A DNA stretch of 64,000 nt, from the NCBI GenBank assembly GCA_965178125.1, contig OZ237738.1, forward strand, positions 1-64,000. The letters run 5' to 3'. The translations under genes and the position numbers were made by a program. Source of the stretch: Bilabrum cf. latius. Lineage: Eukaryota. A model generated the notes under the pieces. It saw only the letters and a list, made by a program, of their open reading frames with translations, made no database searches and was not told the origin of the DNA. Of this stretch, positions 23,375-63,421 are shown piece after piece. The first letter of the stretch is position 1; the number at the start of each line of letters is the position of its first letter.

Positions 23375-26300
23375 TTACTGGCGACCGCGCGTCTCTGGGG
23401 TATCTTTGGTCCGCCACTGCACATGACAAGTGCGAGTTTTGCCGCTTGTAGCAAGCAGAATGTCCCGGGCCCCTGCTTCTGCCAAATCATACCGCTGGTC
23501 TCCCGAATCCGCTCGAACTGGCTTGCACACATGGGCGTGCTCAGTGGGTATGGCAACGTTTCGGCATTGCTCCAGCCTCGCCGACCATTCAGGCACAACC
23601 ACTAAAGGCGGTAGACCAACGTGAATATCCTCCGCCAACTGTTCGATTGCGCAGCCGCAGCCCACCATTACAGCTGAGCTCAATGACGTGTGCATGTACC
23701 TGCTGGTCAATCGTGCCATCTTTCCCTGCTGGTCAGTCGTGCCATCCTTGCTTGGCGCCCCAGCCGCACTATCTATCGCAGCAAGTTGTGCCGGCATCCC
23801 AAGGTGTCCAAGTCTGCACGCATCTGCGAATCGATCGTTGATGTCGCTCAGCAAGTTGCTGTCTTCATGTAGGTGCTACACAACCGGCGATGCGATCGGT
23901 AGGATGTTGGCGTACCCCACCGGGCTGCCACGATGCGGGGTTCCGTAGAATACGACAGACACCGGGGCTGGTGGAGCTTCGTTCTGCACGCCCCCACTAC
24001 CGGTGGTACTGGCGGTATCCAGTTTGGGTTGCTACCGTGTGGCTCGCAATTTCGCACCCCAGGGCCTGGTGAGCACGTGCTTGACCAGCACTCCACCCAA
24101 AGAGTGAGTCAAAAATAGCACAGGACATCCTGACTGTCCTACACCGGCGAGTTCGAGCTACTCTTCTAGCTATGCTGCCAATTCTGGCACCGAGGCATCG
24201 CGGCTGCGGTTAATCCTGGCGAAGGGGTCAGCATCAAAACCAATAGAAAGCACCCTGGCACCGACAGCGTATTTTCTAAACAGTTCTGGAGCGAGCCAAG
24301 CCACCGGCCAGATTGGCACCATCTATCCATTTTCGGCCCGGACCAACGAGCCACCAGCTTCAAGCCCGCTTGATTCACTTAAGCTGGCCACCACAGCTCC
24401 ACCCCGTGCAGACGAAGCACCGGGATCCGACGCAACACCCGCTCGCCAAGTCGTGTAAGCATCGCCCCGGAGGCCATGCACAAGAACGATATCAATGTTG
24501 AGAGCAGATCCTTCTCGACCTCGCCAGTCCATCAACGGGTGAATCATATCGCCGAATTTCTCTCGCCTCTCCACTGCCCCCGCACACTTCCCGCCTTTAG
24601 GAAATGCATACGGAAACGGGCTCTCTTGAGAGTGGCTACTGCTTCCCACAGCTGAGCCTTGACATGATGCTGCCACGTTGGAGACGACTCGCGCAAGTTG
24701 GGTCCGCAGCCGAATGTCGCCGGTCTCGCCATGGTGGACGAGCATTGCGGCGAGGCTGGACGCAGGCTGCGACGGACCTTTTGACGGTTCCCCCGTAGCA
24801 AGCATTCGGGTACTAACTGCTGCATAGTCATCATGCAGTGACAGATTTGCCACTGTTCTAACAAGCGACACTAGGGCGCTATTCCAAGCCATATCGCGAG
24901 TCTGCTTGTCCGAGCATGCCGAGTGAGCTTTGTCATTCCCACGCCAACGCTGTGAGAGGTGCGACCATAGCGTTTGCTCTGTCAGTGGCTAATCATTCCT
25001 GGAGCGTGAGAAAGTGCTTGTTTCTGCGATCGGGTTCGTTCCAGAGCATGTGAGGAGAAACACGGAAGACAAAGCACCAGCCGCCAGCAAGCTCCCTCGG
25101 CTGCCATCTACAAGAGCGTGTGTTTGGGCCATTCCGGCCCTAGCAGTGCGTCTCCAGCTGCTATCTGACTGGCCCGTCGTCCCAAGACTACTGCGATATT
25201 CAGTCTCGATCGAAGCGTTCGACTGTAGATCGGCCCCAGTCAGTGCTGCTATGCGATGGTTCGCGTCATCATGCGATTCGAGCATGACTGGAGGCACCTC
25301 CCCGGTCGCGTACGCACAAGCCTGAGCTGTTGCAGCAACGGCTTCTTCGCTCAATATTTCGTCGTAAAGGCAGTCCACTGCAGACCATAGAGTAGCTCGA
25401 AGCTCAGAGATCTCGTCAGCCATTCTCTACGCCACTGGTTTGGAAACCTTCTCAAAAACCAGACTCCAAGCTGGAGCTGAGCTATGCTCTGGTGTAGGGC
25501 TTGAACCGCTTCGAGATCCAGCTAACTCTGAAGCAGACCCAACATGACCCGTTCGACCGCCCACCTTCACGCTTAAGGCCTGGCGCACCGCATCGGTCGA
25601 CGAAGGGTCTCGAAAGCCAGGGAGGAGCACGCTTCCGATCCAGCCAGTACCAGCGGCAGGAACACGATCAGGCAGCTACTCAGCATCTTGAATGCCGCAT
25701 GACCACAACATGTGGCCAAACGACGCAAAGGGACCAGTCCCAGCAGTATTTTCACCACGAAGCCTTGGCGCTAGCACTCTCCAACGACTACTATAAAACT
25801 CATTCTAGTCCGGTGTTTCTGTGCTTTCTGCCTGATCTGAAGCATTATTGAGGTCATTGTTCGCTACCAAGCGTTCAAAAATGGATTGATGAGCCAATGA
25901 TAGCTCCTCAACGATCGCCTGGGCAGTAGACGTCAGCAGAAGCCGCTGGCTTGCCATGGCTGGGTCTTGGGCGATTCTTGCGGCTTCAACCAGGTACCTG
26001 TCGGCGATTCCAGCAACACAAGACAGTAAGTGCCGCAAAGAAGCGGATGCCTTGTCATTTGTATGGCTGGCAAGAAGCAGTTGCCTGCTCATCGTAGCCA
26101 AGCGACTAGCTGATACGGTTGGGCCACGTTGGCTACTTGTCGTGCGAAGCAGCTGGTCTCCACCGAGGTGCCGCTCCAAAGATGATACAGTAGGGCCAGT
26201 GGGCTAGGCTAATATCATCACAGCAGTCTCCACACCAACTCTAGCTGCTCGAATCCACTGCTATGGAACGCCTGCTCGCACGCGAGCAGAGGTGCCAGGG

Positions 26301-27742
26301 GGCCGAGTAGCTTCAAGTTTGCGTTGGGCAGCGCATTCGGCGACAGCCCCGAAGATGCCGGCTGCAGCTGAGCACAAAATGTCTGATCTAGGCGCATCGG
26401 TCATTGGTCTTGAACCAGACTTAGCGCTCTGCACCACGTTGGCAAGGCCATGTCCTTCGATGTGGTCCGCGAACAGACCTACACGAGATAGACTGCTCTG
26501 TATATCAGAGGCAAAGGCAAGCCACTGCGGTGAGTCGGGCAGCACCCCTTTATGATACATAGCTGCACCAGCAAGTGACCTTGCAAGAGTCCCTGCCGCG
26601 CGAGCTTGCCGCTCCATAGTCAACACAGACATGGCCACAAGAGGGGTGCATCGATGAGGCGCAGATGCGCCACCCGTCCTGCGAGCCGCGCGTGTGTCTG
26701 CGCTGCATAGTGCTTGCATTCCCGCGCTCCATGCATCAATGGATCGCCAAAGCGCCCGGCATCCAAGGATGAGTCTATCCTGCACCGAGCCGAGACGATC
26801 CTCTGCAGAGCTCGCATCTTCTACGGGCGCAGAGACCTCCGCTGTTTCGCCCCTGCTGAGACGGGAAGAAGCCTGCTGGAGGGTCAGCCGTGCTGCGGAT
26901 GAGCACTTCTTTAGCGCGTTCACGAGTATATCCAGCTTGCATGGCGTGTTCGGGTCGCTGGCCTGCCATGCGCATTGCAGCGCGGCTTGTTCAATCTGGT
27001 GACATCCACGGATACACACGTCAGCAGCGCACTCTGCAGCTGTCAGTAGATCAGTTGAATGGGAATCGCGTTCATAGTTTTTACTATAGGCCTCCAGACG
27101 TACCCCAACAGACGCGATGAATAGAGCATCCACTTCAGCTCCAGCCTCGAGTTGGAGCCCACCTGGCTGGCTGAGTACGCTGGCTCCGGCAGCATTTGCC
27201 AACGCTCTGCTTCCAATTTGCGTTGATGCCCACAGTATGCCGGCGGCTAGTCTATCGCGACCCTTCCAAAGCGTGACATCAATAGTCGTGGTGGCAGGGT
27301 CGCACCTCTGCGACGTAAACCAATCCCACATCTCTCTATTTAACCCGTCAATGGCAACGCTGCAGACGACTGGGTTCGAGTGCTACAAGAAGTGTTCAAG
27401 CACGAGCAAATCCTCCTGAACTAGCTTCTATGGGCTCATTCGGGGCACATAGTGCCTTGCGATAATTGACTGCGCTTCGTGAGGCAAGGCCTCAAGAGCT
27501 CTGAGTAACACCTGCATCCTTAGGGCAGAAACAGTAGGATAAATACCATGCAAATCTATGTCCTTTGTTCTGCCTGGGTCGTGCCTGGCACCGGGAACCT
27601 ATTTGTCGCAATGAGCGACATCGGATCCGTCCTGTCCGAGCGACATTGCAATAGCTATAGCCACTGAAGCAGACGAGGCAGAGGCGCATACGCACGGTAA
27701 GGTAATATGGATACGCCCAAGGATCCGCCTGCACGTAAACAT
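23375..27742 (-). CDS. SERAC1: SERAC1-like protein with C-terminal alpha/beta hydrolase domain; start approximate
   Basis: IDIVLVHGLRG, WPVAWLA, THSLGG, VFYGTPHRGS and HAHVCKP in one frame across many TAGs; ends in TAA. Confidence 0.8.
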
Positions 27743-27911
27743 GCCTGCGAGGGCAAACGTCAGGTCAACAAGGGTGAACCGCCCAGACACCGCAGCCAGC
27801 GTCGCCGGCGGCGACAAGTTCCGCAGTCCGGTTTCAACTTGCACAGGTGGAGACTGAGGGTGGCAGTTTGCAAGAGGTCATACACAACGCGCTGAACTTT
27901 CAAGTAGGAGA

Positions 27912-30900
27912 TTAAAGCCACCTCCTGCCGCTGTTGCTTCCCCTGCTACGCGACCGTGGCCTCGACCCCGACCTACCTCTAGATCTGCTTCTTGCACCGT
28001 TTCTTCCCCGAATCCGCGCACCAGAGCGGGTCCGACCCAGCACGGCCTGGCCATCCTGGCGGGGCCCGGCATCTTGGATCCCGCCCGTCCGCCCCATTCT
28101 CCCTGCAGCAGGCTGCCTTTCCGCCCCGACCTGCCGCACCGCGCCTGGGTCCGGGTCCATTCGCCCGAGCGAGGCCCCGGCCAGGCCCCTGCTCCTCCCA
28201 GAGAGCGGCCGCCGCGCCCCTCCCGCGGCAGGCACGCGTCGCTCGCTCACAACACCGCGAGCCGAGAGCCTCTCAGAGCCACTGGCAGGTCGCCGGCCGG
28301 AGCCTGGGGCCCCTCCAGCTCCCTGCCGCGGCAGCTGGCCAAGCGGCAGGGCAGCTACCGCAGCACTGCCTTGCTGAGTTCCACTGACGGCAGACCCATA
28401 CACCGCGTGCAGCTGCTGGGCCTTGGACCGGGAGCGAGAGGCAGACCTCGACCTGGACCTGCTCGTCCGGCGCACCCCGGCGCTTCTGGTGGGCCGGCCG
28501 GTGGCAGTCGCTCGCACCGGACCGGAGTCTCGCATGGCAGTGGCAGATCGGGTGTGCTCCGTGGGCCCGGCGAACATGCGGGCAGCCTGTGCCGCCCTGC
28601 CCGCTGGTGACCGGGCCACCACTCGATCTGCAGCCGCTCGCAGCACAGCATCGGCGGGCTCCTCGCTGCCTCGTGCGCCCTCATCTCCGCTGTCGCTGTC
28701 TGGCTCCCGGGCCGGGCTCGACGGGGCCATGCGGGCGGCGGCGAGGGCGCCCGAGAGCGACGAGGACACGGTCATGGGCGTGGGTTGCCGCGAGTGGTCC
28801 GCGCTCCCAGTGGGCTCATCAGCTGCATCTGTGTCAGGATCCCGACCGGATCCATTCGTATAGACACTAGGGTCATGGGCGGATCCAGCCCCACTGGGCG
28901 GTAGACCGCCGGGAGCGGCGTCGTGCTCCGCTTTGACCGCACCATGCTGCGAGGCGCCGCCCCTCTCTCGGGCCCCACCACCAGCCCCAAGCCCTCGACG
29001 CGAGCCCTCCGCAGCAGACCGAGCCCGCGACTGCGTCTCTGATCGGCTCGACTTGGCCGCGGCCCGCTCGCGACGCTTCTGCTCTCTCTGCAGCTTCCTC
29101 AGCTTCCTCTGCTCCTTCCTCTTGATCCTCTCCTGGGTGAATGCCTTGGCCTCCGCGATGATCATGTCGCGGTAGTTCCCCGCCGTGAGGCCCTCGTCTG
29201 CCTCGTGGTCGAAGTGCAGGCCTCGGTGCGGGCTGTGCGCATCTCCTTTCCCCGCCAGGGGCCCGGCCCCAGGACCCAGCTCCATGCCCGCTGCATCCCC
29301 CACGCCCATGGACCCCGACATGGACGCACCCAGAGACATGGACATCGAGCCTTCGCCCGCGTCGCGCATGCGGCGCTGCGCGTCCTGGTATGCCTTGGCC
29401 TCGGACTTGCGCTCTGCAGGAGTGCTGACCCATGCACCTGCCCGGCCCGCCCGGTCCACGGTGGAGGCTCCCACCGGTGGACTGCTCCCACCTGCGCCCT
29501 CAGACACCCGGCCAGCCGCTCCCCCGGCGGCAGTGGGGCCCGGAGAGCCGCTTCCGCCTGCCGCTGCCAGCACAGCCCGTTCTGCAATCGCCACTGGGGG
29601 GGATGCGACACCGCCTCCACCGCTTCTGTCCCGGGTGGCCCCTGCAGGCGCGGAGGCGGCGCGGGAGGCGTGCGAAGACGAGCCATCGGGTAACTTAACT
29701 CCCTCGGGCCGTTGCGCGGCCAGAATACCTGAAGGCTTGCCCGCTAGCACGTCTGCCTGGTCCCGCCGCCCGAGCACCACGGGGGCCCTTCGGCCTGGGC
29801 CCTCGGGGAGCGGAAGCACAGGGTCTGGCGTGGTGTACTGCGCCCGCACGTCATCGAAGTACGGGTGCTAGAGGGCCTCATCCACGGTAATGCGCCGGTT
29901 GGGGTGGAAGACCAGCATCTTGGCGAGCAAGTCCAGCACCTGCGGGCTGGCGCGGGGAAAGACGTCCCGCCAAGCCTTGGCGGGCCGCTTGGGCATGGAC
30001 TGCACGAAGTGCAGTGCCTCCTCGGAGCGCACGTAGTCGATATCGTCGTTCGTCGGGGTACCAATCACGTCAAAGATTAGCTTGAGTTGGTGCATGAAGT
30101 CATTTCCGGGAAATAGAGGCTTGCGGTGCAGCATCTCAGCCAGGATGCAGCCGACGCTCCACACGTCGATCTGCGCGTCGTAGGCCCCATCTGCGCAACG
30201 TGGTGGGATTGGCTGGATAGGGGGGGGGGGTGCGTGGGAATGTAAGGGGAAGCTGCTAGGGAGTGCGGATGAATGCCAGTGCCACCGTACACTAGTCGCT
30301 AGGTGGCCTCACCCGCCGACAGCATCAGCTCTGGGCTCCGGTACCAGCGTGTAACCACGTGCTCGGTCATAAGCTAAGTGGGGTCGTCTGGTGCCAGTCG
30401 GCTGAGGCCGAAGTCGGAAATGCATAGGTCGCAGCTCTTGGAAACGAGCAGATTAGCTGGCTTGAGGTCGCGGTGGATGATGCCATAGCGGTGAGTGAAC
30501 CTCAGGCCTCGCAGCAGCTGGAATGTGAAGTGTTTCAGATGGGCACTCGTGAGTGCTTGCTTCGACTGGATAACCCTGCGAGGAATGGACGACAGCTCAC
30601 GCCAATACCACTCAACAACGGACACTATCAGGTGTCGCTCAGATGGTGAGAGAGCGAGAGGATCCTCGCTAGAGGCAGACTGGATGTGCGGCTTACTTGT
30701 GCAAATCTGTGTCCATAAGCTGCATTACAACGTACAGCTCGTCATCGCGCTCTTTCACAATGAGATCCTTGAGGCTAATGATGTTTTCATGCCTGCGCAC
30801 AGTCAATGGACCGATCGCATTACGGGACAAACGTCTCGGATAGGCCAGGCACCGCAATAATTTGAAGTGGACACTTGAGTAAAAACTGTGTGAGAGCTCG

Positions 30901-31148: not shown

Positions 31149-31534
31149 TCGTCCGATATATCAATCAAGTATTGAGATTGATCGTGATTCGCCAAGCGCC
31201 CAGTCACAAGGACGTCAATACACCACGCTATTTGGGTGGGACGGAAGTGTTGTTACCGGATCGGTGGGCTGGATCGCAAATGGCGCCACAGTGTGATGCA
31301 CCCACACTGCAACGGAACGCATTTGAGTAAAACACGATTATTTCGTAGTCTGGAGAGCGAAATAGTTTATCAGCATCAATTTTGTGATTAGCAGTACTAT
31401 CACTAGACCGTGCTTTGAGCTCTGCCTGAGACGACTCTCCGTATCACCTTGGTCTTGCGACCTCTTCCGAGCAGCAGCAGATTTGCTGCTAGTCGCACAT
31501 TGGCTTGCACTTGATTGTTTCCAGCCCGGCAAGC

Positions 31535-34500
31535 ATGGCAAGAAGGGAACGTGAACATCTTATCAGGGCACTCCCCCCTGTATAGGCAACTGCGGATCCG
31601 TTGCTGTCGCTGCACAAGCCTGTTAACCAAGTGCGTGAGATAAACAGCAAGAGTGGATCGAAGATCATGACTATGCGGTTCGCCCCAAAGCCAACAGCTG
31701 GCATGGCAGTTGGGGACGAGGCACGAAGGATAGTGCAGGAGGCAAAACTCGCTCCAGATGGCGTGATTGCAGTTTCTGCCCAGGAGATCGATGACACTCT
31801 GAAGGGCGCAAAGAAACTCGTTAGATAGCGGAAGCGAGATGCCTCAAAGAAAGCAAAACTTCGTGGCTTTGCATAGAGTAGGAAAAAGGGTGCGCCAGCT
31901 GCCGATGATGGCGCAGATTCTGGTGACAGCGAGGGCGCAAGGTACGAATCCGGTGGTATACCGGGCACAGATGCAGCCGATCGAACCTTGGTTGGTCGGT
32001 ACCTTCGCTTGTTGAAGAGCCGTGAGGCTGCAGCCCTTGCCGACCGTCAAGAGCGGGAGGAGCAGTATCGGCTGCACAAGGACGCGGTCAAATGGCGGTC
32101 CATCTACCAGATGCACCTGCACCTGGCCACGCTCGGCTCGACCAGATATGACCCGAGAAGACCGCTGCTGGACGAGCCCCAGAGGCAGCACGCCGAAAGC
32201 CTGGCCCGAGAGAGGCGCATGAGGCGCAAAAAGCTGCGGCTAAGGCGGGAGCGCAACCGTAGGAGAAGGCTGCGTCGTGCCCGGGGAGAGGCGGACGAGA
32301 GCAAGGTGACTGGGGTGCGGGAATAGGGGAGCAAGTCTGGGGGAGAGGAGGACTCTGACATCCTCAGCTCGTCTGACACTGACGAAGAACTGCGGCGTCG
32401 GCGAGAGCAGAAGCGCAAGGGCAGGCAGCAGCGGCAGGCCACCGAGGCCACTCGCGCCGCTGAGAGGATGGGCCCTCTCGGCGTGCTGCAGACCGCCATG
32501 GGCCCTCTCGTGTCGTACCTGCAGCCACCTTCCTCCGATGACGAGGATCAACCGCCATGGAGCGAAGAGGGGCACGGCAGGCTCAAGGCAGCCGGCGTGG
32601 TGTGCCTGCCCCCCACAGAGTCGGATGACGAGCAGGGGCCTGCGATGCTGCAAGCGCCGCACTCTGTGGCAGCGCAGCGGGGGTCTGGTGGGGCATCGGG
32701 AAAGGGGGCCGGCTTGAGCACGGAAGAGGCTGCGAGCCAGCAGGCAGGATAGATCAGCTCGCAGCTGGTTGGACTTGGGAATGCCCTGCGGCAGTTTCAG
32801 TACATGTCGAAGCTGTTTCGAGAGCTGTATCGGGCCAACCCAGGGGTCTAGGTCACGCAAAGCAGGTTCATGGGTGCTGTGCGCAACCTCTCCTCCAGCC
32901 TCATGACTGACCGAATCGACGCTGCTAGGAAGAAGAGAGTTGCTCTCGTCGAGTAGGCCAGTCGGGCGGTGCACCTGGTGCTTGCCCTGCGGGAGGCACT
33001 CGGCAAGCCCCTCGAGCAGGGTCTGCTGCAGCATTCGGCTTCAGGTGTATCTGGCACCCACGGGGGTGCCATGGTTCCTTTTGGGGCTGGTGTCAGCCGA
33101 TCATCCCGTGGCAGGCGTGGATCAACGAGCGGTTACGATGCGGACAGGGGCATGCTGGCCAGCCGCAGCCTCGCCTCGAGGCAGTCGCGCACGTCGGTGC
33201 TCAGCCGGGCGTCGCAAAGAGACCCTTTCGCAGCCGTGAGAGATCCGAATACAGGCGCAGTACCTGTGCCTCAGCTTGCGGAAGACGCACCGGCCTGGAC
33301 TACAGCCGAGATCGATGCAGTACAATCCAAGGTGCGTCGCCACTTCGCGGGTGGACCGGCCAACGGCACCGCAAGCGCCGCCAAGCGCGGGTACGGGACC
33401 GTCAGCGGCACAACTATGGCTCAAGTCAGCGATCCAGGTAGATTCGGTCTAGAAATGGCTGCGGGAGGTGCAGCCGAGCTGCAAGGTGCCGCCCGCGAAG
33501 AGGTCTTAGAGGCGGCGCGGGTGTTTGGACCCGGGCTGCCGACTGCCGTCGCTCGCAGGAAAGTGCAAGCGATGCGGAGAGCTGAGCGCCTGGAATAGTC
33601 GAAGGGCCTCGGTAGCCTTGCTGAGCGCAAGAGTATGTGGTGGGCATAGCAAGACGACGATGTCGTCAAGCTACGCAAACGGCAGAAATCGGCGGCTATT
33701 TAGCGCGCCCAGGAGCGCAGAATGCTCGGGCTGCCCCCGGAGGAAGAAGAGGAGGCCGAAGCCGCTGCAGCTACGAAACTGGCTGGTAGGAGCCGGAAGC
33801 TTTCCCCGGTGAAGGGAATGGCCAGGAAGGGGTCCAAACTAGGACCGGCACCGAAAGGCAGACCCCCTGGTGCAACTGCTGTCCTGGACTTTGGGGTGCT
33901 GCCGATCGGAATTTCACTGCGGCTGTCGGCAGATGAGACCAGGGAGCTGTTTGGAAGCTTGGCACCTGCCTTGCCACTTGCTGTGGCATCTAACAAGCCC
34001 GTGCCGTCCCGCCTGCTGACGCGAGTCTCTCGCTTGCTGACGCTTCCACCTGAAATGGGTCGCAAGGCGCCTCCGCACTTGTTTGGACCCAACGGTGCAG
34101 TCTCCCTGCAATCTTCACGCGTTCAGGCATCTTCTTCGCACGAATCCACGTGGGTGGTGCCGTAGTGGCTGCACACTGCTCTGTGGCCGTTACGTGGCTC
34201 AAAAAAAGTCGACCATGCAGCCACTACCTGGGCAGCTTTGGCTCTTGCATAGGACGAGGCAACCCGCGCTGCGCAGGCCATGAAAGGCTAGAAAGGACCG
34301 CCGCTTGTGCTGCATAGGCAAGGATGGACAGTCGATGACGCTGTGTACAGCAGCGTTGACGATATCCCCACGGCCCAGCGGCACGACAACCGGATCGCTA
34401 CTCTCGCCTACATCCAGCGGCGAATCCGCCCAGTGTTGCGATGGGCAGAGCATGCATCTCGAGCAATGTGCGTGAGGGATACTGGGGTACCCAAGAGTGG

Positions 34501-37500
34501 TTCCGCAGCTGCAGCAGAGGAAAATGCAGCGGATGAGGGAGGCTCGATGCCATGGAGGGAGCTCCTCGTCTGCCTTCGGATCATGAGTGACCCATTCAGC
34601 TTGCCTCACCAGCATCTACGGTGGGCATTCTAGATGTACGGATCGGAAGCAGAGCTAGACCAGCGATAGCTACCTTCCATCCGGCTGTTTGACCCGGTGC
34701 CGCGGCTGACGCCTCCAAAGACTGGGTGGGCCTCCAGAGCTCTCATCAATGCAGAGTGGGCGACCAAGCCGTAGCTGCCTGCAGGACGCCCCGGCGGGCC
34801 GCTGCAGCGTCTGGTTCGCCGCTTCATCTAGGAGGGCGGAGGTAGGCACAGGCGTTCTGAGTTTGGGCTCCCCCCAGCTGGATCCAAGCTGATGCGAGCC
34901 TTGAGTGCCCCGCATGGGGCGGCAGGGAATCCGGCGCTGGACGTTCGAAGATTCTTCAAGGCTGCCGAGTCTATAGCAGGGCCAGACGAGGAGGACGGAG
35001 CAGCCGGTGATCCAGCCGCTGCCTCGGGCGCGATTGCAGGCAGTGCACCCACGGATGGGCTTTCTCAGCCGTCTATTGCAAGCTCTATCGGCATGCAGAG
35101 CAATGCAACATCCTCGACAGCGCTTGTGGCGCGTAATGTGAGGAGGTCATCCATCACAGGCAAGATCCTGAAGAAAAAGTAGCTTACTCCGTATGAGCTG
35201 GCCCGAGCGTTGCGAGAGCGATCGTCTGTCTTGTTCTAGCAGAGTGATCATGACGGGCAGTCTCCTAGCAAGGGGATGGACGCGTCCGGGGCCCTCATGA
35301 TGTCATCCGTGGAAGCCAAGCAGAGGGCGTACAACGACCCGCAGGCGGCTATCAGGTACATGCAGCTGGCAGAGGCGCAGGCAGATGCCAAGCGCAAGAA
35401 AAAGCTTCACAAGAAGGTCCACAGCGGCGCCATTGGGTGGTCAGTAGGAGCGAAGCAGCCGATTGACGTGAGCTTCAAGCACTGGCCAGGCCAGCACAGT
35501 CGTGCAGCGCGCCCAAAGCGAACACAGGCCCGAGGTGAAGCCATGATGCAAAATTCCATTCTCAGCAAACACAAGAAGCGTATTACTGGCCGTCGTGGGA
35601 AGCAGCATGCAGCGACTCGGCCCGCTGGATAGCAGGGCTTGCTGGAGCAGGGTGTGTCTGGGCCAGGCGGCCAAGGCGTGATGCTGTCACCAGACCCGAA
35701 GCTTGGGAAGGTTGACGAGTTTGACAAAGGATCGAGGGAGTGGTATCCAGATGTCGCATGTCCGACGGGGGCCATTGCTGGCATGTTTGGCAGCGTCTGT
35801 GGCACTGGGGACCAGCGCTTGGACATGGAGGATCTGGTGATGGGAGTGCAAAGCCTATCGGTATTGCCCATGCCACCACCCCGAGAACTGGCGTACACTA
35901 TCGCAGACTTCCGGCAGATGCACAGGAATGCAGAGCAAATGGCAAGGCAGAAAACAGCCGTGGAGGAAGCTGCCGCTCGCACCCTGGAGGCGGCTGGAAA
36001 GCGACCCAAGGACAAGTGGGTGCTTGACGAAGAGAGCGGGGCGTACGTACTGGTTCAACGATTACCACCGGGCCTTGATGTGGTCGCATCGAATGGGCCT
36101 CCCATGAATCAAGACATGGTGTCTTTCGATGATGCAGCCGGCACCTAGGCCGAGAAAGACCGCAAGAAGAAAGGACGAATCAGCGCAGTTCGACGACTGA
36201 GTATGGGGAACGAACAAGCAGTGGCGGTATCTGTGTTGCAGGAGAGGCGGGGCATCGAGCGCATCGACGATGACAACAGCAAGAAAGGTGGGGCAGATGA
36301 GTCTGCTGAGGAAGCCGCAGCTCGACGCAAGGCTCGGCTGGAAGCGGCGCGCTTTGGAGAGAAGGTTGATTTGTCTGTGAGCACCATGGTGGGGTTCTCG
36401 AGGGAGGGTGGCGGTGGGGACAAGAAGTAGAGCCAGGCGAAGCGGACTGCCCTGGAAGTCTTCAGCATGCTGGAGAGCAGCTTGGAAGGGGCGGGTGAGA
36501 ACTGGGGCAAGGAGGCAGAAACTGCAATTGCCAGATCAATGGGCTGGAAACGGAAAGGCTCTCGTTGGGTCTAGTCGGATGACCAGAGCCTCGTCCAAGC
36601 ATTGGTCGATAAGGTGCCCGGACTGGAGGACGAAGATGAGCTCGCGATCCAGCGGAAAAGGCGCGCACAGGAGAAAGCTGATAAGGAGAAAGACACCGAA
36701 AAGAGCGCGGCTGAGCAGCTTGCTGCCCTGATTGGAGGCGGGGGTGGCGATTCAGAGGATGATGACGAGACCGCGGGCACGATGACTGCAGCTCGGCGCA
36801 AGAAGAGGAGGCCGCGTGGGTACAGCCCAGGCGTACGCTCCGAGGCGCTCCTCACAGCTGCAGGCCGATATGATTGGACTGACAGCGACGAAGACGTTGA
36901 AGTATCCCGCGGCATTGATGACACGACTATCCGAGACGAGGAGGAGCGTGCTGAGCTGCGACAGATGCAGCACAGGTGGCGCCTTACGCTCATATCCATG
37001 CTCCGGGACGTATTCCGGGACGGGCCTGCTCTTGCAGGGCAGGGCGACAACAAGGTTTCCTTGGTTCGATCCAAGGCAGACGGGAATGGCCTTGAACCCC
37101 GCCCCACTGTCTCACTGCGGGACTTCGATTCCATGGTCTGCTCGCCCCCTCTGCTGCGACTGCTGCGACCCAGGCGTGACTACGAAATCAAGACCGACCG
37201 CCCGGCTTGTCGATTCGAGACGTTTTATCCAAAGGTACTGCTGCAGCATATCATCCGCTCTCGCGATGCCTATAGAAAAGCGTTTGCAATGCTCAAGGTC
37301 CTGCGCCGTTGGACCATGCTCGAGATGTTCGGCATCTTCGAAAATTGGATGGGTTGGGTCGTGCGTCGAAAGCACACTCGGTGGCGCTTGCAAAGACTCA
37401 ATGACTCAGTTCGGCGAAATGGCATGCGCCGGGCAATGCGCCAGTGGGCCAGGAACTGCACCGTGGCTGCAGCAGCCGAGCGACTGCAGTCTTCCTGGCG

Positions 37501-39412
37501 AGCAGCCAGGGACTTGAAGCTGGTCAGGCGGCTGAAGCCTAGCATTTAGGCAGCTACCAAGGTTCAGAGTCTATGGAGAATGTACCGTTACGGCAAGGTC
37601 CCGGTCAGAGTGCTCCGTCAAAGGCGTTGGGCGGCAGCACTAGACCTGCAGCGCGTTTTCCGTGGGTTTGTTGGCAGGCGGACGGCCCGCCGTCGGCTGC
37701 AGAAGCGAGCTCGTGGGCTGCTTAGGGAAGCCCGCGAAGAGGAGAAGCTGTAGGAGATCGACAAGAGGGAGCTGGCAGCTCGTGCAATCCAAAGGGTGTC
37801 CAGGCGGCACATGGTCAAGCAGCGAGCGAGGGAATGGAGGCAGCAGCTGTGGGCAGCTCGGCGCGGCGAAGAGGCGATCTAGCGGGCAGAGGAGGAGGCC
37901 AGGAGGCAGGCGGCAGTGGAGGCAGCTGTCGCCAAGAGAAAGCTAGAAGAGCAGCTCGAGGCGATCAGGGAACAGGAGGAGGCCAAGCAGCATCGCCTGG
38001 AGGTTGAACGGCGGCTGCGAATCTCTTAGATGCGGAAGGCGGTGCAAGGAGCCGAGGCCCAGCGCGACCGCGAGAAGGGTGAGATCGAGCTGCAGGTGCG
38101 CAAGCGTGTCGCCGAGGCCAAAAAACAAGGAGTTGACGATCGAAAGCGGCGCTAGAACGCCCGGCGTCGGCAGCTCATTAAGTACATTAAGGACTACGCG
38201 CTGGGCAGCACCGACCAGACGCTGCGTGAGGCCCTCACCTTCCTGGACAACGAGGCAAAGGTCAGGCCTGATGCGGCCAGGGGGCAGTTCGAATGGCGCA
38301 ATTTTTCTGTCGGAGTAGTCGCAGACAAGGCCAAGCAGGGGGAGGAAGGGGCGGCCGAGGACCCGTCGGTGATCAAGGCGGACGAGCTCAAATTCACGGA
38401 GAACGAGTTACTAGAGCAGGAGAAGATCATGCAGCGGATCATGGCGGCCAGCGAGGAGGAGTACAAGACTATGCAGGAGCAGCTCAAGGGAGAGGCGTAC
38501 AACCGCCGCACGAGCTCCATCCGCACAGACGCCATGGTGAGTGCGATGGCCAAGATCATGTCGGACGAGCTAGGGGCCATCCACTCGGACGAGAGCAAGA
38601 TGGAGCAGGACAGGCTTAAGGACGTGGCCAAGTTCCGCAAGAACGAGCTGGTCCAGATCGAAGTGCGCTACCAGAAGGCCCTCCGGCCAGCACGCGATGA
38701 GGCGGTGGGCATCGTGCAGGGAGCAGCCCGTGCCTACCTGGCCAAGTGCGACCTCGCGCGCGCGATCCGGGCCACGTACGAGAAGGAGTGGGACGAGGAG
38801 AAAGAGCACTTCTACTACCGGAACACTGTGCTGGGGACCAGGCGGCCCACCCGCCCCATTATTATGGGGGCGTATGATGTGCGGTGCAAGACGATGAGTC
38901 GGGAGGAGGAGGAGGCTTGCAAGCAGAGGCAATTTCGCAGGCATGGTGTCGAGGGCATGGACATGGGCGCGGGCGTGGGGGCCTAGGAGGAGGGGGCCGA
39001 GGGGATCTCGGGCGAGGATGGGAAACAGAGCAAGTACGGATCGACTGCAGCTGCTTTCAAGCCACCTCCTGCCAGCTCTGGGCGGCAGTTCGGCGACAGG
39101 GTCATCGTGGCGGGGAACGCGTCGGGGCTAGAGGCACTGGGGGGCACCGGTGGGGCAAGCCACAGCGGAGCGGCAAGTGGGGCAGGAGCAGACTGGGACT
39201 ATCACTAGCCGGGGGGGGGCGAAGGCTACTATGGCGAAGGGAGCGCGTACGCTGCTGCGGGGCAGGATGAGGCCGACGCTGGCGGGAGCACAGCTGCGGC
39301 TGGTGGCTCGTCTGAGCCGGATGAGAATGGATGGTACTACGATGAGTACGGGCGGCCATACAACGAGACTGGGTGGTACGATACGGATGGAACGTTCTAT
39401 GAGTGGACGTGA
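31535..39412 (+). CDS. Large (~2600 aa) coiled-coil protein with IQ calmodulin-binding motifs and a WW-like segment
   Basis: 12 ORF fragments share one frame; IQ-like LQSSWRA, VQSLWRMY, LQRVFRGFVGR, VQGAARAYL; YEKEWD..HFYYRN; ends in TGA; not every junction was checked. Confidence 0.7.
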
Positions 39413-39526: not shown

Positions 39527-41221
39527 ATGATCGGTCAATTGTTTCGACCGATCACGAGGGAGTGTGCGCGCGGCCGCATGCAACGCATCACCTGCGCTTG
39601 CTCCAGAGCCTTCTCTTCGAAAGTGTGTGTTGGTTTGTCTGGCGGAGTAGACTCTAGTGTTGTCGCTTTGCTGGGCAAGAAAGCTGGGCTCGACATACAC
39701 GCAGTTTTTATGAAAAACTGGGACAGCTCGGACGAGCGAGGTACATCTTGCCAGTTTGAAGAGGACTGGGATAGTGCACGTAGAGTTGCAGACCATTTGT
39801 CGATCCCGATTAGTCGGGTAGACTTATCAAAAGAGTACTGGAACGATGTGTTTGAGCCCTTTCTTGAGGACTACTCGAATAACTTTACTCCAAATCCGGA
39901 CGTTGGGTGCAATAGGCACATCAAGTTCGGCGCCTTTATGCGATGGTGTGTGCGGGAGCTCGAAGCGGATATAGTCGCAACAGGGCATTACGCCCGCTTA
40001 TCTGCATGCCCACCGTCTATAGCAACTTCGTTAGACGCGTGCAGCCGTGGCTCTGACACTAGAGTGTTCTCCATGCCTACGGGGGACCTAGAGCAGGTGC
40101 TTGCGAATGCATCATGTGATTGGGCGCCATCTGAGCTGCGACGTGCCATTCCAGCGCACATCGGCAGCCCCCCCCAACTATTGCAAGGCGTAGATAAAGG
40201 TAAGGATTAGAGCTACTTTCTCGCTCAAGTCGACCGTGGTGCATGGGCACGAACGTGGATGCCCCTCGGTGAGTTCCACAAGCAAGACGTGCGTCGGCTG
40301 GCTCATGCGGCTGGCCTGCCCACTGCGACAAGAAAGGATAGCGTTGGTATATGCTTCATTGGCAAGCGAAAGATGGGAGACTTTCTGCCTCAGTACATCC
40401 CAATGAAGCAGGGCAATTTCAGGTTGTGGCCGGACGAGCCATTGAGCGAGGCTGCGGCGGGCCCGCCAGACTCTGACACCGAGTTGAACGGCGCTCCAGT
40501 GTCTCTACCGTCCCTCGGGGCCCACAGCGGAGTCGCTCTTTATACGGAGGGTCAAGCAGCTGGCATTGGAGGACTGCCCCGCAAGGCGTACGTAGCGAGG
40601 AAAGGCGTGGACGTGGCAGCGACCGTACGCGGATGGAGCACTGCCGGCACATCGTCATCGGCGAGCAAGCGGTCAGGCTGGGCGGCAGGCAGCGACATCG
40701 TTGTGGTGCAGGCTCGCACCCACCCGCTTCTATACACGAGGTCTGTGTTCCTGCGCCTGGACCGGCTAGTCGGCCAGCTCGCCGGGTAGCAGTGGGAACG
40801 TGCCATCCGAAGCGAGGGGGGCCTAGCCGTGGCTGCTCGATTCCGCAATCTGCAGCCGCTGGTGCGCGGCTGCAATGCCTCGGTGACTGCTGATGGGGTG
40901 CACCTCCGCGTGGAACTGCCGATGCCGCACCGCGCCCTGTCTCCGGGACAGGTGGCCGTGCTGCACCTGGAGCAGGAGCACTGGCCCTCTAGTGCAGAGG
41001 GGCTGCTGGACTATGCTGAGCTCCCTGTCCTCGCATCTGCGCCCATCGATGACACGGGGCCATCGCTGCTGCACGAGGGCCGACTGTAGCCAATGCCGGC
41101 TGAAGGCTAGACGAGTCTGTTCCCGGGAGTGCTCCGGGCGGGATCGCACCCTTTAGCAGTGCAGCCGCAGCTTGGTGACACTGATTGTGCACTTACAGAG
41201 GAGGACATGTGGATCGACTGA
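39527..41221 (+). CDS. TRMU: Mitochondrial tRNA 2-thiouridylase MnmA/TRMU
   Basis: GLSGGVDSSV, MKNWD, TPNPDVGCNRHIKFG, ATGHYA, KD*SYFL, KDSVGICFIG, ALSPGQ; ends in TGA. Confidence 0.93.
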
Positions 41222-41321: not shown

Positions 41322-42818
41322 TCACGCCCGAGGCTAACCGACTGCAGCCACGTGTCTCCTCGCCTTGCCTGCACCAATCACAGCGACCTGTCCGTGGAGC
41401 ACTCCTGCCGGCCCAATGGGCGCACTGGCCTCCTTTGCGTCCACCCTGCTCCCATTGAGGGAGAGGCCCCCTGCTTTGGCCAGCCGGCGCGCCTCGGCCT
41501 TTGACGATGCGAGACCCGTAGATTGTGCCAACTCCAGCACAGAGCTGCCTTGCAGAGCTTCCGCTGAGTCGAGTAGGGAACCAGGAATCGTGCCAGCCTG
41601 CACGCATGCCGCCAGCTCTGCAACAGCCCCAGGACTAGACTAGTCCTGAGACTCGCTGCCGTGCAGCGTGGATGTGGCTGCTCGTGCGATGTCCAATGCG
41701 TCCCTCCCGCGCACCATTCTTGTGACTTCGTCTGCAAGCAGCTGCTGCGCGTGCCTGAGGTGGGGAGCCTCCGCGTGTTCCTGCAGCGCTGTGTCCACGT
41801 CTCGCATGGGTAGCAGGGTTAGCTTGGGGAGCAAGTTAGCCGCGTCGTCGTCCGACATGCGCACAAAGTACTGATAGAAGGTGTAGTGGGGCGTCTACTC
41901 TGGGTTGAGCCAGACCGCCGCATTTCCCTCAGACTTACCGATCTTGCGGCCCGCCGCGTTGGTCAGCAGCGGCACTGTGATGCCGTACACCTCATCCCCA
42001 CACATTCGTCTGACCAGGTCCACCCCTGCCACGATGTTCCCCCACTAATCCGATCCCCCGATCTGCATCGCGCACCCATGCTCCCGGTACAGCGTCCAAA
42101 AGTCCCAGGCCTGCAGCACCTGGTATGTGAACTCGGTGAAGCTGAGACCTGCCTCAGATGCAAGGCGAGACTTCACGCTGTCTTTAGATAGCATTGTCGA
42201 CATCCTGAAGTGCCTACCAACCCCGCCAATAAAGTCGAGCGCAGACATGTCGCGATAGAAGTCCCCGTTCTGCACCACTTCTGCCCTGGGCGACGCTTCT
42301 TGCCCATGCCACAGCTCTGGCAATTCGCCAGAGGCACTCAATCTCGCGGCATAATAGTCATGATCACCATCGCGACACAGCACCTGCTCGACACTCCTCT
42401 GTATCCCAGCCAAGTTTGTCTGCAGCTGCTCTTCTCCGAGCTGAGGTCTCTCCGAGCTCTTTCCGCTAGGATCGCCAATGCGTCCAGTAGCACTGCCAAC
42501 CAACGCCACTGGTCGAATGCCATGCAAGCTCATATGCTTCATCAGCACGAGTGGAAGTAGGTTTCCGACGTGAAGACTTGGGGCCGTAGGGTCCTAGCCA
42601 ACGTACACGCTGCATGGTGGACAACTCGTTTTCCCTTCTGCTGACCACTGTGAGCGTGATGTCCAACTATCGAAAACGTTGCTGCAGCTCTCTGAAGTGA
42701 CAGCATCTACCAGTCCTCGTTTGCGGGCTGCGGCAAGCCAGCTTGTTTTAGCGGTCGTACACAAAGATCTAAACCCGGTATTCCACCTCCTTACTACTCC
42801 ATTTCGCATAAACATCAT
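41322..42818 (-). CDS. YARS2: Mitochondrial (bacterial-type) tyrosyl-tRNA synthetase
   Basis: [11 protein letters not shown] (HIGH), [34 protein letters not shown] (KMSKS-like), S4-like C-terminus; ends in TGA. Confidence 0.93.
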
Positions 42819-55151: not shown

Positions 55152-55471
55152 AGGCGGTAAACACCTTCCCGACCGTTTGGTCGTAGACCTTCCCGCGCAC
55201 ATCGGCGAACGGGCCATAACCACTTCGCAGCCCCCACAGGGATCTCGAGTGGAATCGAGAGCTATTTAGCTCTTCTTCCGCTGCGCAGACAGGCGTCCGC
55301 ACTTTTGTTGTAGCGTGTGGTTTTGACCGCATTTGGCATCCACGGTGCTCCTCCAGATTGAAAAACATGCGTACAGGCCGGAGGATTGCGAGCCAGCTTC
55401 GATCTAGTCGGCTTGTAGGTTTTTTATGCAGCAGTTGCAAACCAGTGGTGGCAGCTACTTGTAGATTATAG

Positions 55472-56372
55472 GTAGTAACGTACTATAACTTCCCAAAAAC
55501 TGAGGAAAATGCAGATGACCTTGATGCCATCGTAAAATCGGGGAAGCGGGTTATTCGAGGACAGAGATTTTCTCTGTCTCTAAATGAGAAGAATGCCAAC
55601 AGCAAGGCAAGGGTATCGGGCTTCTTGCGACTGCACAACGGAGCCAGGCCTGTGCTGACAAAAGTGTACGCCCGCGAGTGCTATTCAAGACGCAGGCCTT
55701 TCATCGGCTTAAATAAGCATGCGGAGAGATTATTTGTTGACACAAGGCCAGGTGAGTTCGATACTGCCCGCAAAGCGCGCTGCTAGACTTGTTCTATGTT
55801 CATCCAATCCATATCTACTGCCAAATCCTAGTCTTTACACTGTCGCAGCATCTGGATTTCACAAGTGGAGAGAAGACTCAAGGGTTGATAAAGTCATGGA
55901 AGCCTTCGCAAAGGTCTTAAAAAATCCTGTGTACAAGCACGCTGTGGTGTACAACCCAGACGCCACGGTAGACAGGGATGCCGCTGCAGCAGCAGGGAAG
56001 GAAGGTTCGAATGACTACAGGCCGCCGGAGGTGAAGCCCGAGGATGAGGAGACATTTGCGGTATCGGTGCCTTCACAGGCAATCGGCTTGCGCCTAGCCG
56101 AAGAGCTCTACGGGGCCTTCTGCGAGCTCTTCCCCGAGGAGGAGCACACTGTGGAGCAGCACGAGACCCGCCGGGCCAACCGCAGCGAGAGGAGGAGGGT
56201 CGCCAAGGAGGCCAAGCACAGGCACATGCTCCGGATCATTGCCCAGCGCAAGGACTTGCTGCGCAAGGTGCCCCGTGGCTCGATCGACAAGTTCATCGAG
56301 CTTGATCGGCAGGGCCAGTTTGAGGACTCGCCTGTGGAGGGTGATGCGGGGGAGGAGGGAGCAAGGCAGTGA
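55472..56372 (+). CDS. Hypothetical spliced protein (5' end unresolved); probable intron 55752-55848
   Basis: Open frame VVTYYNFPK...DTRP joins in phase via GTGAGT..CGCAG to ASGFHKWRED...; ends in TGA. Confidence 0.45.
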
Positions 56373-56848
56373 GGGTATGAGTTGCACCTCTACAAGCCAT
56401 TGGTACAGTTGTGAAAACCTTTCATTTCACTGCAAATGGCCGCCAGCGGACACGCCCCCCACTCGCACTGCAATGCCACAGCTCGGGAGATGCCGGGAAG
56501 CGAGCACAGACCACCGACATGGCTTCAGGTGGCACAAATGATCTTTTGATGAGATAATAATTAATTGAGTCCATGATTGACTCGCCAGAGCACCACGTTC
56601 TTGAGGATTCACTGGGAAAAGCAAGTGTGTCGTTGAGTTCTCTGGACAAAGTACCGACGAAAACCGTGAACCGAGCAGCGTACGCAACAAACTTGTACGG
56701 TGCTGCATTTGATTTGCCAGCACTCTAGGCTCAAGTCGATGAAACGGATGCCTGGCGCAGCGCTAGGGAAACAACTATCACGGGCCCTGCAACGGCAACT
56801 GTGCGCCCTGTCGACGTGACAGCAACGATACTTGATATTTTGAATCTC

Positions 56849-58657
56849 ATGGAAACGTAGGGGCTCTATTTCACTAGGGTTGGGACAAAGCTTTCCTCAG
56901 AAGTATCAAAATGCGCTACGTCGCCCTACAAGCTGTCGATGAAGCTGCTGGCGTCATGGCCAACACAATTGCTTGCATCCACGGTTGCCGGGATCGCTAA
57001 TGAAGTGCGGCGAATCCTGCAATGCGCAGAATATATACCAAGTAGTGAATTAAACAACATTATCGCGGCATGCATGCGCCAGAAGGCCATAGGGCACTAG
57101 CAGGCTGCTGCTGGAGCAGGTGCTGACCAGCTGCAGCCGCTGCTGGGCAGCCACTTGGATCAAACAGCATGCGTTATCGCAGATGCTGATCCACTCCTAG
57201 AGGCCCGAAGTGATACGGCCGAATTCTTGCTCGATTCTGGCGGGGGCTCGCCTGGCAGAGCGTCAGTCGGATCCAAGCGGTCCAGGACCGGCAGTGCTGC
57301 TGCTGCTTCTGCTGCTGCTACTGCTGAGACAGCCGAAGAATCAGCGCCGAAGCGGCGCCGACGAGAACCGGCAGTGCGCCTGTTGTAGGCGTGGAGGCGA
57401 GAAGACCGGCACTGGCACCACCGCCTGCACTCCGCTGGAGCTGCCGTCAACCCGCGTGCGTTACCCCCGATGGGCCCTGACCCCAGGCTTGTGGCGCAGC
57501 TGGCCACGCGGGCGATGGCACTGGCAGACGTGCTGCTGGGGCTGGACGCGGCACGGCCTGAACAAGCTGTGCGGCGGGTGATGGATGCAATGGAGACCAT
57601 AGGAATGGAAGGGTCCGGGCAAGGCCCCGGTGTCTCGCGGGTGTGTGCCAGCTCCACCACTGCCGGCACTGGCGAGAAGCAGCTACCAGCGTCTTCCTCA
57701 TCTGCATCCTCTGCAACATCAACAGGACGCAATACAGCGCATGTGCAGTCGACTGGATCTGGGCCTGGGTATGACCCCGAGCTGGGGTCTCTCATTGCAG
57801 CTGCAATGGAGCAAGATGGACAACAGCAGGCCCAATCAATGGAGGAAGATGGGCCCCATCAGGCCCAATCAATGTAGGAAGATGGGCCCCATCAGGTTCA
57901 GACGGTGGCAAAGGCAGACCACAATCAGCAGCACGAACGGACGATGAAGCAACGAGAACCATCCGAGGTCGATCCGATTGAGCCCGTTCTCGCTGTTCCG
58001 GTCAGCAGTGCGTCATTGTCAGTCACGGGTATCGCGAGTGGACCGCCGCAGGCAGGCGCTGAAGGAAGCACCATCGCGCCCGGCTGTAGCAGTGCAAACA
58101 ATGCAGTTGCTCCCTCTGCGTTGAATACGCACCCACTCCCGTCCTTGTCCATCTCAGGCAGCGCCTAGTTCCACCAGGTGCGGCAGTCGTTGGGCGCGCC
58201 TGCCCGCGTGTGGCCACATGAGCAGGTGGCGCCAGTCAGACAGCTGTCGGAGTGGCTCTGGACGTCGGAAAGTGGAGTTCTGCTGCTGCATGAGTTCGCC
58301 GGTGCCACCTGCTGCCAGCTCCGAGTGGGCGCTCAGGTGGCAGTGCGCAGGGCAACTAGGAAGGGCGCATCCGGGCCTGTGTCTGTCGATGAGTGGGTGG
58401 GGCTGGCCGCGCTGGAGTGGCTCCGCTGGTTCGTGGCGATCTCAGCGGGGCTCAGAGGGGTCGGGTCGATCGGGAAGCTACCGAGTGCGTTTGTAGTTGC
58501 TCGAGCAGTGCTTGGGGTGGGCTCGCATGGAGCGGGCTCTCGTAGCGGGAAGGGTGGGAGGGGGGCAACGGTAGCAGCTTAGTCAGGTGCAAGTGGCCCC
58601 GAGCACGAGGGTCGCCCTGGGAGCCGGTAGGGCTTCATAGAGAAGGATGGCGATTGA
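56849..58657 (+). CDS. Hypothetical protein (~600 aa)
   Basis: ORFs at 57155, 57470, 57905 and 58178 share one frame joined by TAG; ends in TGA. Confidence 0.6.
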
Positions 58658-61900: not shown

Positions 61901-62034
61901 GGCGCACAATCCAATGGTTCTGGTCATTTTCTCGACCACGGCGTCCGGCTTAGTTCATTGAAAGGTGCATGCATGTACAAAAATACGCGTAGTCCATCCT
62001 GTGAATATAAGTCCAATAAAGCAACGCATGTCAA

Positions 62035-63421
62035 TTACTTGCGTTTTGGCCTGGTCTTTCTCCTCGCGGCCCCCGTCGCGCTAGAGGCACTAGCTGCCCC
62101 TCCACCTCGTCCTCGTCCTTGCCGAGTCTGCTCCCCGGTCGCACTCGAGCCTCGACCAGCCTTCCAACTATTCTGCGGCCCTCCATCCCTTGTGTCAAGT
62201 TCCTCATTCCCGGCCCCTCGCCCCTCAAGCCGGAAGTGGTTGATCAGCTCCGCCATGCGGCCCGCATTCATCTCGAGCCCCTGCAGCAGGCGCTGGCGGG
62301 GTCCACCTCCACCAGTGACCGGCGGGACACTGCTCGGATGCATCGGGTGCGAGGATTTGCTACTACTAGCACTGCGGCTGCTCGGCTGCTCCCCGCTCCC
62401 GCTGTCTGCTCCACCTGCCCCTGCCCTGTCACCATTCGCTTCACCCAAACCTGTAGCCTCTTCTACTCCGCCAGCAGACCGCTCCTCCCCATCAGCTCTG
62501 ACGTCCGCATCCCCCATTTCTTCCTCCTGTCCTGACCCTCCTTCCTCCTCGAGGTCAAGCCCGCCCAGACCACCGCTCTCGACACCCTCGAGGAGCATGT
62601 CAGCCAGCTGGCTGTACACGGTCTCACCCCCGCCTGGAGGAGGAAGAGGACTCGATGGGGACCCGCCCCCGCTACCCCCTGCGCTGCGATCATCCATGCT
62701 CCTGGCTCCTGCACTGAGAGGCGCGCTCGTCGGACTCCCCTGCCAGCCCCTGAGCAACCCGCTGCCGCCCGAGTCCCGTCGCACGCCCAGCGAAGTCTGG
62801 CCGACTCCAAACATCGCCCGGCGAGAGGCGTGTTGTGCTGATCCAAACGCGCTAGAAACGAACACTCTGCCTGTATCATTACTGCTGCCGCTCATATCCC
62901 GCCGCGGCCGCTTGCGGTGCGGCCCCAAAGCCTTTGGCAATGATTCTGCTTCGGTGCCTGGGCCTGCCCAGCCCGAGCTGCGGAGGGCAGTGTAGTCAGC
63001 CACAAGCTCCTAAATACCAGCAAGAGTTTTCTAGAGGTGGTCTGCGGCCGCCTCTCTGTTATTTCCCATGGCCACCAGCCTTTGCGCCTCCTCACGTTTC
63101 AAACGATGATAGTCCGTGAGAACATCCAGCAAGGACTAGGCTTGAGCAGCATTTCTAGGTAGGGCCGATGCATCTTTGGTCAGATCCAATGAGTCCACAA
63201 TCAGCTGCTAACAAGTTCTGTGAAACCCCTACGCATGCAAGAAAGAGTAGCACACCGAAAGCGCATGAAAGGACTGCGCACCTGCTTGCATTCTCGCAAG
63301 CAACGCAACGGCCTGCTCTCGTTAGCTGGCAGCAGAATCAATAGGAAAAGGAAAGTTTATGTAATCTCGGACCTGAATGGACCTCACCCTTCGTGCACTT
63401 TGAGGCAAGCAATTCGGCCAT
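62035..63421 (-). CDS. LisH-motif protein with a low-complexity tail; intron 63282-63387
   Basis: VCYSFLHA*GFHRTC*QL..SLLDVLTDYHRLKREE read with TAG=Q; basic C-terminus RRKTRPKRK; ends in TAA. Confidence 0.65.

Follow-up and report, generated by a model that had tools for sequence, protein, structure and literature searches.

Nuclear genetic codes in which UAG, but not UAA, is reassigned to glutamine have been described for the fornicate Iotanema spirale and the ciliates Protocruzia tuzeti, Hartmannula sinica and Trochilia petrani (PMC5304391, PMC11687900). Codes that split UAG from UAA are rare and are listed for only a few lineages, most of them ciliates (PMC5304391, PMC11687900): UAG alone is read as leucine in the rhizarian exLh and in TARA phyllopharyngeans and as serine in Scotinosphaera (PMC11687900), and Oligohymenophorea sp. 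PL0344 uses UAG for glutamate and UAA for lysine (PMC10553269, PMC11687900). The code in which both UAA and UAG specify glutamine (UAR=Gln, NCBI table 6) occurs in Tetrahymena, ulvophytes, Hexamita and Streblomastix, and has been reported for Amoeboaphelidium protococcarum. Here we analyze the first 64,000 nucleotides, forward strand, of contig OZ237738.1 from Bilabrum cf. latius (assembly GCA_965178125.1), hereafter the window, whose genes are very probably read by a nuclear code that uses UAG regularly for glutamine and terminates at UAA and UGA alone, with a preference for UGA.

The codon table of the window is the one described for Iotanema, Protocruzia, Hartmannula and Trochilia, as UAG is widely used for glutamine, UAA never occurs in frame, and both UAA and UGA terminate. 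Unlike hosts of the Iotanema and Protocruzia type, however, the window has a (CCCTAA)n telomere, a GC content of about 57%, introns of 91-122 nt, and genes for an organellar tyrosyl-tRNA synthetase (TyrRS) and for MnmA. Ciliate telomeres differ from (CCCTAA)n, and an anaerobe lacking an organellar genome should have no use for an organellar TyrRS or MnmA. UGA is the preferred stop in the window (13 of 16 frame ends), whereas phyllopharyngeans prefer UAA (PMC11687900). With the UAR=Gln code the window has UAG as glutamine in common, but TAA is not a sense codon here (none in 13,956 codons of the window and none in 4,153 codons of a related metagenome contig, L001). The UAG/UAA split is common to exLh, the TARA phyllopharyngeans, Scotinosphaera and PL0344 as well, the amino acid here being glutamine. 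Condylostoma, karyorelicts and Blastocrithidia (PMC4967479, PMC11687900, and a 2022 bioRxiv preprint) also carry stop codons inside genes, but in the window TAA and TGA never occur in frame and no shortage of TAG towards the stop is seen among 16 frames. In crAss-like phages (NCBI table 15; PMC9523058) TAG likewise encodes glutamine while TAA and TGA are stops; these are phages, whereas the window, with its telomere and spliceosomal introns, is part of a nuclear chromosome of a eukaryote. Besides Iotanema, a literature search brought up no GC-rich eukaryote outside the ciliates in which UAG alone is reported as glutamine. The type of code is already known, and what is new looks like a further host lineage, apparently a new one.

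In-frame TAG and conserved glutamine positions

Under the standard code the window falls apart into many short frames. When TAG is read as sense, frames of 2,691, 2,660, 1,500 and 1,008 codons are obtained, along with some ten others in the range of 340-850 codons, and Pfam domains extend across the merged frames (Vps8, WD40 propeller, Band7/SPFH, protein kinase, MnmA, class I TyrRS, mitochondrial carrier, endo/exonuclease-phosphatase and UPF0020 methyltransferase). At E<=1, no Pfam family was found for six frames, namely a SERAC1-like, a LisH-like and four others. Two enzymes contain TAG at positions where the expected residue can be read from the alignment:

42045..42047, minus strand, diagnostic TAG of the organellar TyrRS gene within GGSD-TAG-WGN, at a glutamine column
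40208..40210, plus strand, diagnostic TAG of the MnmA/TRMU gene within GKD-TAG-SYFL, at a glutamine column

The TyrRS position (column 258) is occupied by glutamine in 120 of 120 aligned homologues and in the three PDB alignments shown. For MnmA, where four PDB sequences were matched, glutamine stands at the corresponding position, KDQ(S/T)YFL, in all three PDB alignments shown. Standard-code frames break at both codons.

Codon counts show which of the three stop triplets is tolerated in frame. The 14 long frames, 13,956 codons counted from stop to stop, contain 126 TAG, no TAA and no TGA, the zero for TAA being partly built in and an end at TAG impossible by construction, as the frames were delimited by TAA or TGA. 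When the same frames were shifted (two shifts), 38 and 51 TAA, 120 and 134 TAG, and 186 and 361 TGA were found. Counting from each first ATG leaves 13,546 codons with 120 TAG, no TAA, 167 CAA and 352 CAG. TAG makes up about 0.9% of all codons and about one fifth of all glutamine codons in the window. The ratio of CAA to CAG is 173:363, so that CAA accounts for 32% of the two, GAA and AAA behave similarly, and G-ending codons are favored. From the CAA:CAG ratio, a TAA with the same meaning as TAG should appear about 60 times in frame, and the off-frame density of TAA, about 0.3% per codon, predicts about 45 over 13,956 codons. TAA is therefore kept out of the coding frame in the same way as TGA, and TAG is not. 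The long frames cover 41.9 of the approximately 56 kb beyond the repeats, which is not built in by the frame definition.

Contigs from three sequencing runs (X5, X6, X7) skip five stretches of 91-122 nt, bounded by GT..AG or CT..AC, all of which are retained in the DNA run X1. The three runs are not recorded as RNA and are called RNA-like here from these GT..AG-type joints, which have no counterpart in X1. The spliced frames of a MAPK, of stomatin-like protein 2 (SLP2, a Band7 protein) and of a Vps8-like protein contain no TAA.

L001, a metagenome contig of 14,608 b with a GC content of 52.5%, requires TAG as sense as well. It shares with the window three neighboring genes, SERAC1-like, Band7 and Vps8-like, in common order and relative orientation, the proteins being 41-51% identical for the two long ones and 80% identical for SLP2. 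Its 4,153 codons contain 59 TAG and no TAA in frame, whereas 27 and 40 TAA are present in the shifted frames. As CAA is about as frequent as CAG in L001 (86:94), this contig is a sharper test of TAA, and about 54 TAA would be expected there if TAA were synonymous with TAG. The initial annotation had described TAG as occurring dozens of times and TAA as absent inside the recognised domains that it read through, and had concluded that UAG and UAA are decoupled and that the code is not of the UAR=Gln type; both statements agree with the counts in the window and in L001.

Orthologous positions in the window and L001 were compared in both directions, a TAG site being accepted as well aligned when at least half of its 12 flanking residues were identical. 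Opposite the 48 sites obtained, glutamine was found 22 times, glutamate five times, TAG and alanine three times each, leucine, isoleucine, arginine, valine and serine twice each, and cysteine, aspartate, tryptophan, histidine and threonine once each. An empirical log-likelihood, calculated with substitution frequencies from the same alignments, was -105 for glutamine and -160 for glutamate, the next best residue. Ordinary glutamine codons are conserved at a frequency of 0.56 in these alignments, and TAG has glutamine as its partner in 46% of cases. In the SLP2 pair, eight TAG sites face CAA or CAG five times, and TAG, arginine and alanine once each. Fragments 93% identical to window proteins have glutamine opposite two window TAGs and serine opposite two others, and one fragment ends at a fifth.

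Gene ends at TAA and TGA

Among the 16 frame ends examined, 13 are TGA and three are TAA. The initial annotation had placed TAA ends at 23375, 27912 and 62035 and TGA at the remaining complete genes. All three TAA codons are present on the minus strand, each closing a long frame, and the others end as described:

23375..23377, minus strand, TAA that closes the SERAC1-like alpha/beta-hydrolase gene, direct reading ...CGC CAG TAA
23375..27877, minus strand, SERAC1-like frame of 1,500 codons with 14 in-frame TAG, identified from phmmer homologues
27912..27914, minus strand, TAA of the MAPK gene, read directly as CTT TAA
27900..27902, minus strand, in-frame TGA four codons past the MAPK TAA, read directly
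62035..62037, minus strand, TAA stop of the LisH-like frame, read directly as AAG TAA
62035..63321, minus strand, LisH-like frame of 428 codons with five TAG, TAG being read as sense

Of the gene names given earlier, MAPK was confirmed, as the protein matches Pkinase in Pfam and, in the PDB, plant MPK4/6, human ERK5 and ERK1/2, whereas 'SERAC1' and 'LisH' found no support in Pfam. With phmmer, 425 proteins were retrieved for the SERAC1-like protein at E<=0.001, and two of these homologues match Abhydrolase_6 or PGAP1-like weakly.

Termination at TAA is well supported for the SERAC1-like gene, because of the lengths of its homologues and because reading through would overlap the Band7 gene. Past the TAA another 286 open codons follow, to 22514, crossing a 197-bp spacer and then running antisense through the last Band7 exon. 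From a DH..(C/N)KP motif to the C-terminus there are 47 residues in the window protein and about 19-52 in seven distant homologues; the L001 orthologue ends 32 residues past the motif, at TAA TAA GCG TGA. For the LisH-like frame, termination at TAA is moderately supported. The frame meets its next stop, a TGA, 37 codons further, and across the TAA the GC content falls from 0.64 to 0.52 and a codon-usage score from 0.118 to 0.003. With these stops, the predicted proteins finish in ...RGRQ before 23375 and in ...RPKRK before 62035.

The three orthologous gene ends in the window and L001 use the same stop codon. The Vps8-like and the Band7 genes end in TGA in both, each at the matching aligned position, and the SERAC1-like genes end in TAA in both, 15 residues apart, so that TAA accounts for one of three ends in L001. 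In seven of the 16 frames the stop is followed, within six codons, by another TAA or TGA in frame, compared to four and three in the shifted frames. Such tandem stops may serve as back-up stops, 16 genes being too few to tell.

Alternative readings of TAG and TAA

Several observations weigh against a code in which UAG is always glutamine and UAA always a stop. As the absence of in-frame TAA is partly built in, the real argument lies in the length of the frames and in homology. The sample is small, consisting of a 64-kb window and a 14.6-kb relative with 16 and 3 gene ends, respectively. The codon-usage score is nearly flat across the SERAC1-like TAA (0.043 before, 0.031 after), although this score is weak in this genome and does not settle where the gene ends. 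The TAA of the MAPK gene, given earlier as a terminating end, stands at the position claimed, but because of the in-frame TGA four codons on it fits TAA as a stop or as sense and is not decisive: termination there is not shown by this end alone. The remaining adverse points concern TAG near gene ends and the residues found opposite TAG, and are considered with the alternatives to which they belong.

Among these alternatives the one that survives best, though still unlikely, is that UAG is incompletely reassigned, being glutamine inside genes and mostly so overall, but a context-dependent stop near the 3' end of some messages, as in Condylostoma, karyorelicts and Blastocrithidia, with a single codon affected. 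Candidate sites would be the TAG that immediately precedes the TGA at 11216 and a TAG in the second longest frame:

31430..39412, plus strand, frame of 2,660 codons with 31 TAG and a TGA end, followed by TAA and TGA at +4 and +5 (Pfam, frame reading)
38984..38986, plus strand, in-frame TAG 16-45 nt past the ends of RNA-like contigs of three runs

Contigs of X5, X6 and X7, which come from two studies, end at 38939, 38967 and 38968, about 440 nt before the TGA of this frame and just ahead of the TAG at 38984, an agreement that counts as a weak hint. The 3' untranslated parts seem to be short, as RNA-like contigs end 9-83 nt beyond the Band7 TGA and 22-48 nt beyond the MAPK TAA (X5 at 27864 and X6 at 27890, two studies). 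TAG lies within the last ten codons in three of the 16 frames: directly before TGA in 9368-11218, four codons before the stop in TyrRS, and nine before it in 56561-58657. Together with the one at 38984, 3'-proximal TAGs lie at 11213-11215 and 41334-41336. These ends leave room for a residual stop function of TAG. However, 141 codons free of TAA and TGA follow the TAG at 38984, and the last 60 codons of the frame reach a codon-usage score of 0.177, the second-highest among the 15 frames scored. Base composition shifts only beyond the TGA at 39410-39412, and in P0391, a fragment of 93% identity, the frame continues past the place homologous to 38984. A series of G runs directly after 38968 may have broken the assemblies. 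Codons of dual meaning are depleted near true stops (PMC11687900), whereas TAG shows no such depletion here, and none of the three pairs of orthologous ends departs from TGA/TGA, TGA/TGA and TAA/TAA. If UAG were nevertheless a stop at some 3'-proximal sites, a lineage outside the ciliates would have a code that depends on context for one codon only, and would show stop-codon reassignment midway. At 11213-11218 the frame 9368-11218 closes with ...TGG TAG TGA; this TAG may be left over from an earlier stop at TAG, the protein having been lengthened by one codon, or an ordinary C-terminal glutamine.

It is very improbable that the code is of the ciliate type, with both UAA and UAG as glutamine and TAA merely rare through high GC. 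The GC content of 52-62% across the window and the preference for G-ending codons would be in line with this, and UAR=Gln is the commonest variant code in eukaryotes and has been reported for the algal parasite Amoeboaphelidium (PMC5304391, PMC11687900, PMC6299283). Base composition does not account for the counts, however, as CAA still makes up 32% of CAA and CAG in the window, with GAA and AAA similar, and is about as frequent as CAG in L001, yet neither contains a single in-frame TAA (in L001 against 59 TAG), although the triplet is common off-frame in both. Moreover, reading through the TAA at 23375 would append 286 codons.

That TAG encodes an amino acid other than glutamine, or is ambiguous among several, is equally improbable. 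TyrRS codon 75 (42594-42596) is a TAG on a column occupied by phenylalanine in 112 of 119 homologues (Y-x-G-F-DPTA), other TAGs of the same gene stand on columns rich in lysine and arginine, 23 of the 48 orthologous sites face neither glutamine nor TAG, and codes with UAG as leucine, serine or glutamate exist (PMC11687900). Against these points, TAG falls on invariant glutamine columns in two enzymes, glutamine is ahead of the next residue by 55 log-likelihood units, and the 46% of glutamine partners resemble the 56% self-conservation of ordinary glutamine codons. Near codon 75 the TyrRS signature reads HVGN, compared to H(I/V)GH in the three solved TyrRS shown; the window enzyme is a divergent organellar TyrRS.

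Spliced contigs of X5, X6 and X7 were compared with the DNA over 21000-40999 and no differing letter was found, in a comparison that could miss rare variants and in which much of 23.7-27.6 kb (X6, X7) and 39.0-39.5 kb had no cover; the X5 contig spanning 31351-38968 likewise has no letter differing from the DNA. As the spliced contigs carry the genomic letters unchanged, the TAGs are not edited away in RNA. The idea that TAGs go untranslated, either because the frames are pseudogenes or because TAG is edited to CAG, found nothing in its favor and deserves the least credence of all, given these unchanged letters, the conservation of TAG-bearing frames in order and sequence in L001, and frames running without TAA or TGA over thousands of codons.

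For the favored reading of UAG as regular glutamine, the most likely mechanism would be a tRNA-Gln with anticodon CUA, which would read UAG but not UAA (PMC11687900), combined with an eRF1 that no longer recognizes G at the third stop position while still recognizing UAA and UGA. Near-cognate reading by tRNA-Gln(CUG) would be the alternative should a CUA tRNA be lacking. Candidate positions in the eRF1 N-domain at which changes may weaken UAG recognition are discussed in PMC5304391, among them the GTS, NIKS and YxCxxxF motifs and positions 32, 55, 69 and 70 in human numbering, and a release factor that distinguishes UAG from UAA and UGA, as called for in the initial annotation, may reasonably be expected from eRF1 function (PMC5304391). 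Neither the window nor L001 contains tRNA or eRF1 genes, and no RNA families were found in the window.

Chromosomal setting, relatives and significance

The genes and structures that surround the frames discussed above are as follows:

1..7592, no strand, chromosome end with (CCCTAA)n, a 155-bp satellite and interstitial telomere blocks (repeat analysis)
13498..21573, minus strand, Vps8-like frame with 31 TAG and a TGA end; 5' intron at 21430-21520 (Pfam, RNA-like contigs)
22427..23177, plus strand, last exon of Band7/stomatin-like protein 2 with a TGA end; intron at 22329-22426 (Pfam, RNA-like contigs)
27912..30190, minus strand, last MAPK exon; upstream introns at 30191-30312, 30575-30695 and 30792-30902 (spliced joints)

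The window begins with 94 copies of CCCTAA, the (CCCTAA)n tract spanning 1-569. Arrays of the 155-bp satellite at 568-3293, 3784-4943 and 5564-6142 are interspersed with four further blocks of telomere repeats at 1787-2135, 3353-3785, 5003-5560 and 6587-7592, the last of which is a perfect 1-kb block, and a 34/53/87-bp repeat at 7615-7836 comes next after this nested region. GC content, 52-62% across the window, is about 57% overall, and the sequence beyond the repeats is gene-dense. On account of the telomere array and the short introns skipped by the RNA-like contigs, the window is a nuclear eukaryotic chromosome end with few small introns and is not ciliate-like. Both the bacterial-type organellar TyrRS and MnmA are encoded in it.

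With TAG as sense, the frame of the last MAPK exon extends over 27912-30308, and the spliced MAPK frame has 960 codons from its first ATG, with two TAG and neither TAA nor TGA. In the activation loop of this kinase (30313-30574, minus strand) T-E-H replaces the T-E-Y of the aligned plant MPK4, and its C-terminal tail of about 640 residues is rich in arginine, serine, glycine and alanine. Internal repeats were seen in other genes. A 153-bp tandem duplication of two copies, 96% identical, lies at 54847-55152 within the frame 54562-55893. A (CACCTG)21 array at 49557-49684, within the endonuclease/phosphatase gene, is translated there as a Gly-Ala run, and the carrier gene contains similar Gly-Gln repeats.

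Near-identical sequences were also encountered. The fragments P0121 and P0391 match the SERAC1-like protein and the protein of 31430-39412 at 93-94% identity, and P0391 as well as P0271, an SLP2 fragment identical to the window, are each found on two contigs, the longest of 29,268 b. A second, divergent haplotype, a homeologue or a sister strain is suggested by these matches. In a tree of SLP2, a single gene analyzed by a quick method with 31 rows (29 hand-picked from at least 120 matches, among which opisthokonts were absent, plus the window and L001), the window and L001 were joined with a support of 100, outside the plant and oomycete groups. Sequencing runs that account for small shares of the stretch bear labels of algal or protist metagenomes. 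Judged from the sequence, an algal parasite such as Amoeboaphelidium would be a less likely host; if it were the host, the UAR=Gln code cited for it would have to be changed to UAG alone. As a fairly divergent environmental relative has the same code, the code is probably old and a property of a clade rather than of a single strain.

The split between UAG and UAA breaks the usual coupling of both codons, which stems from wobble pairing and from eRF1. To the few known cases is added a GC-rich, telomere-bearing and intron-containing eukaryote with genes for organellar translation, together with a divergent environmental relative, both of which prefer UGA. Gene models of this genome would be wrong if made with the standard table or with table 6, and the pattern of table 15 is needed. 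The tRNA(CUA) and the eRF1 changes of this lineage, if identified across the genome, would provide a separate test, set by nature, of how eRF1 distinguishes G from A in the third position of stop codons.

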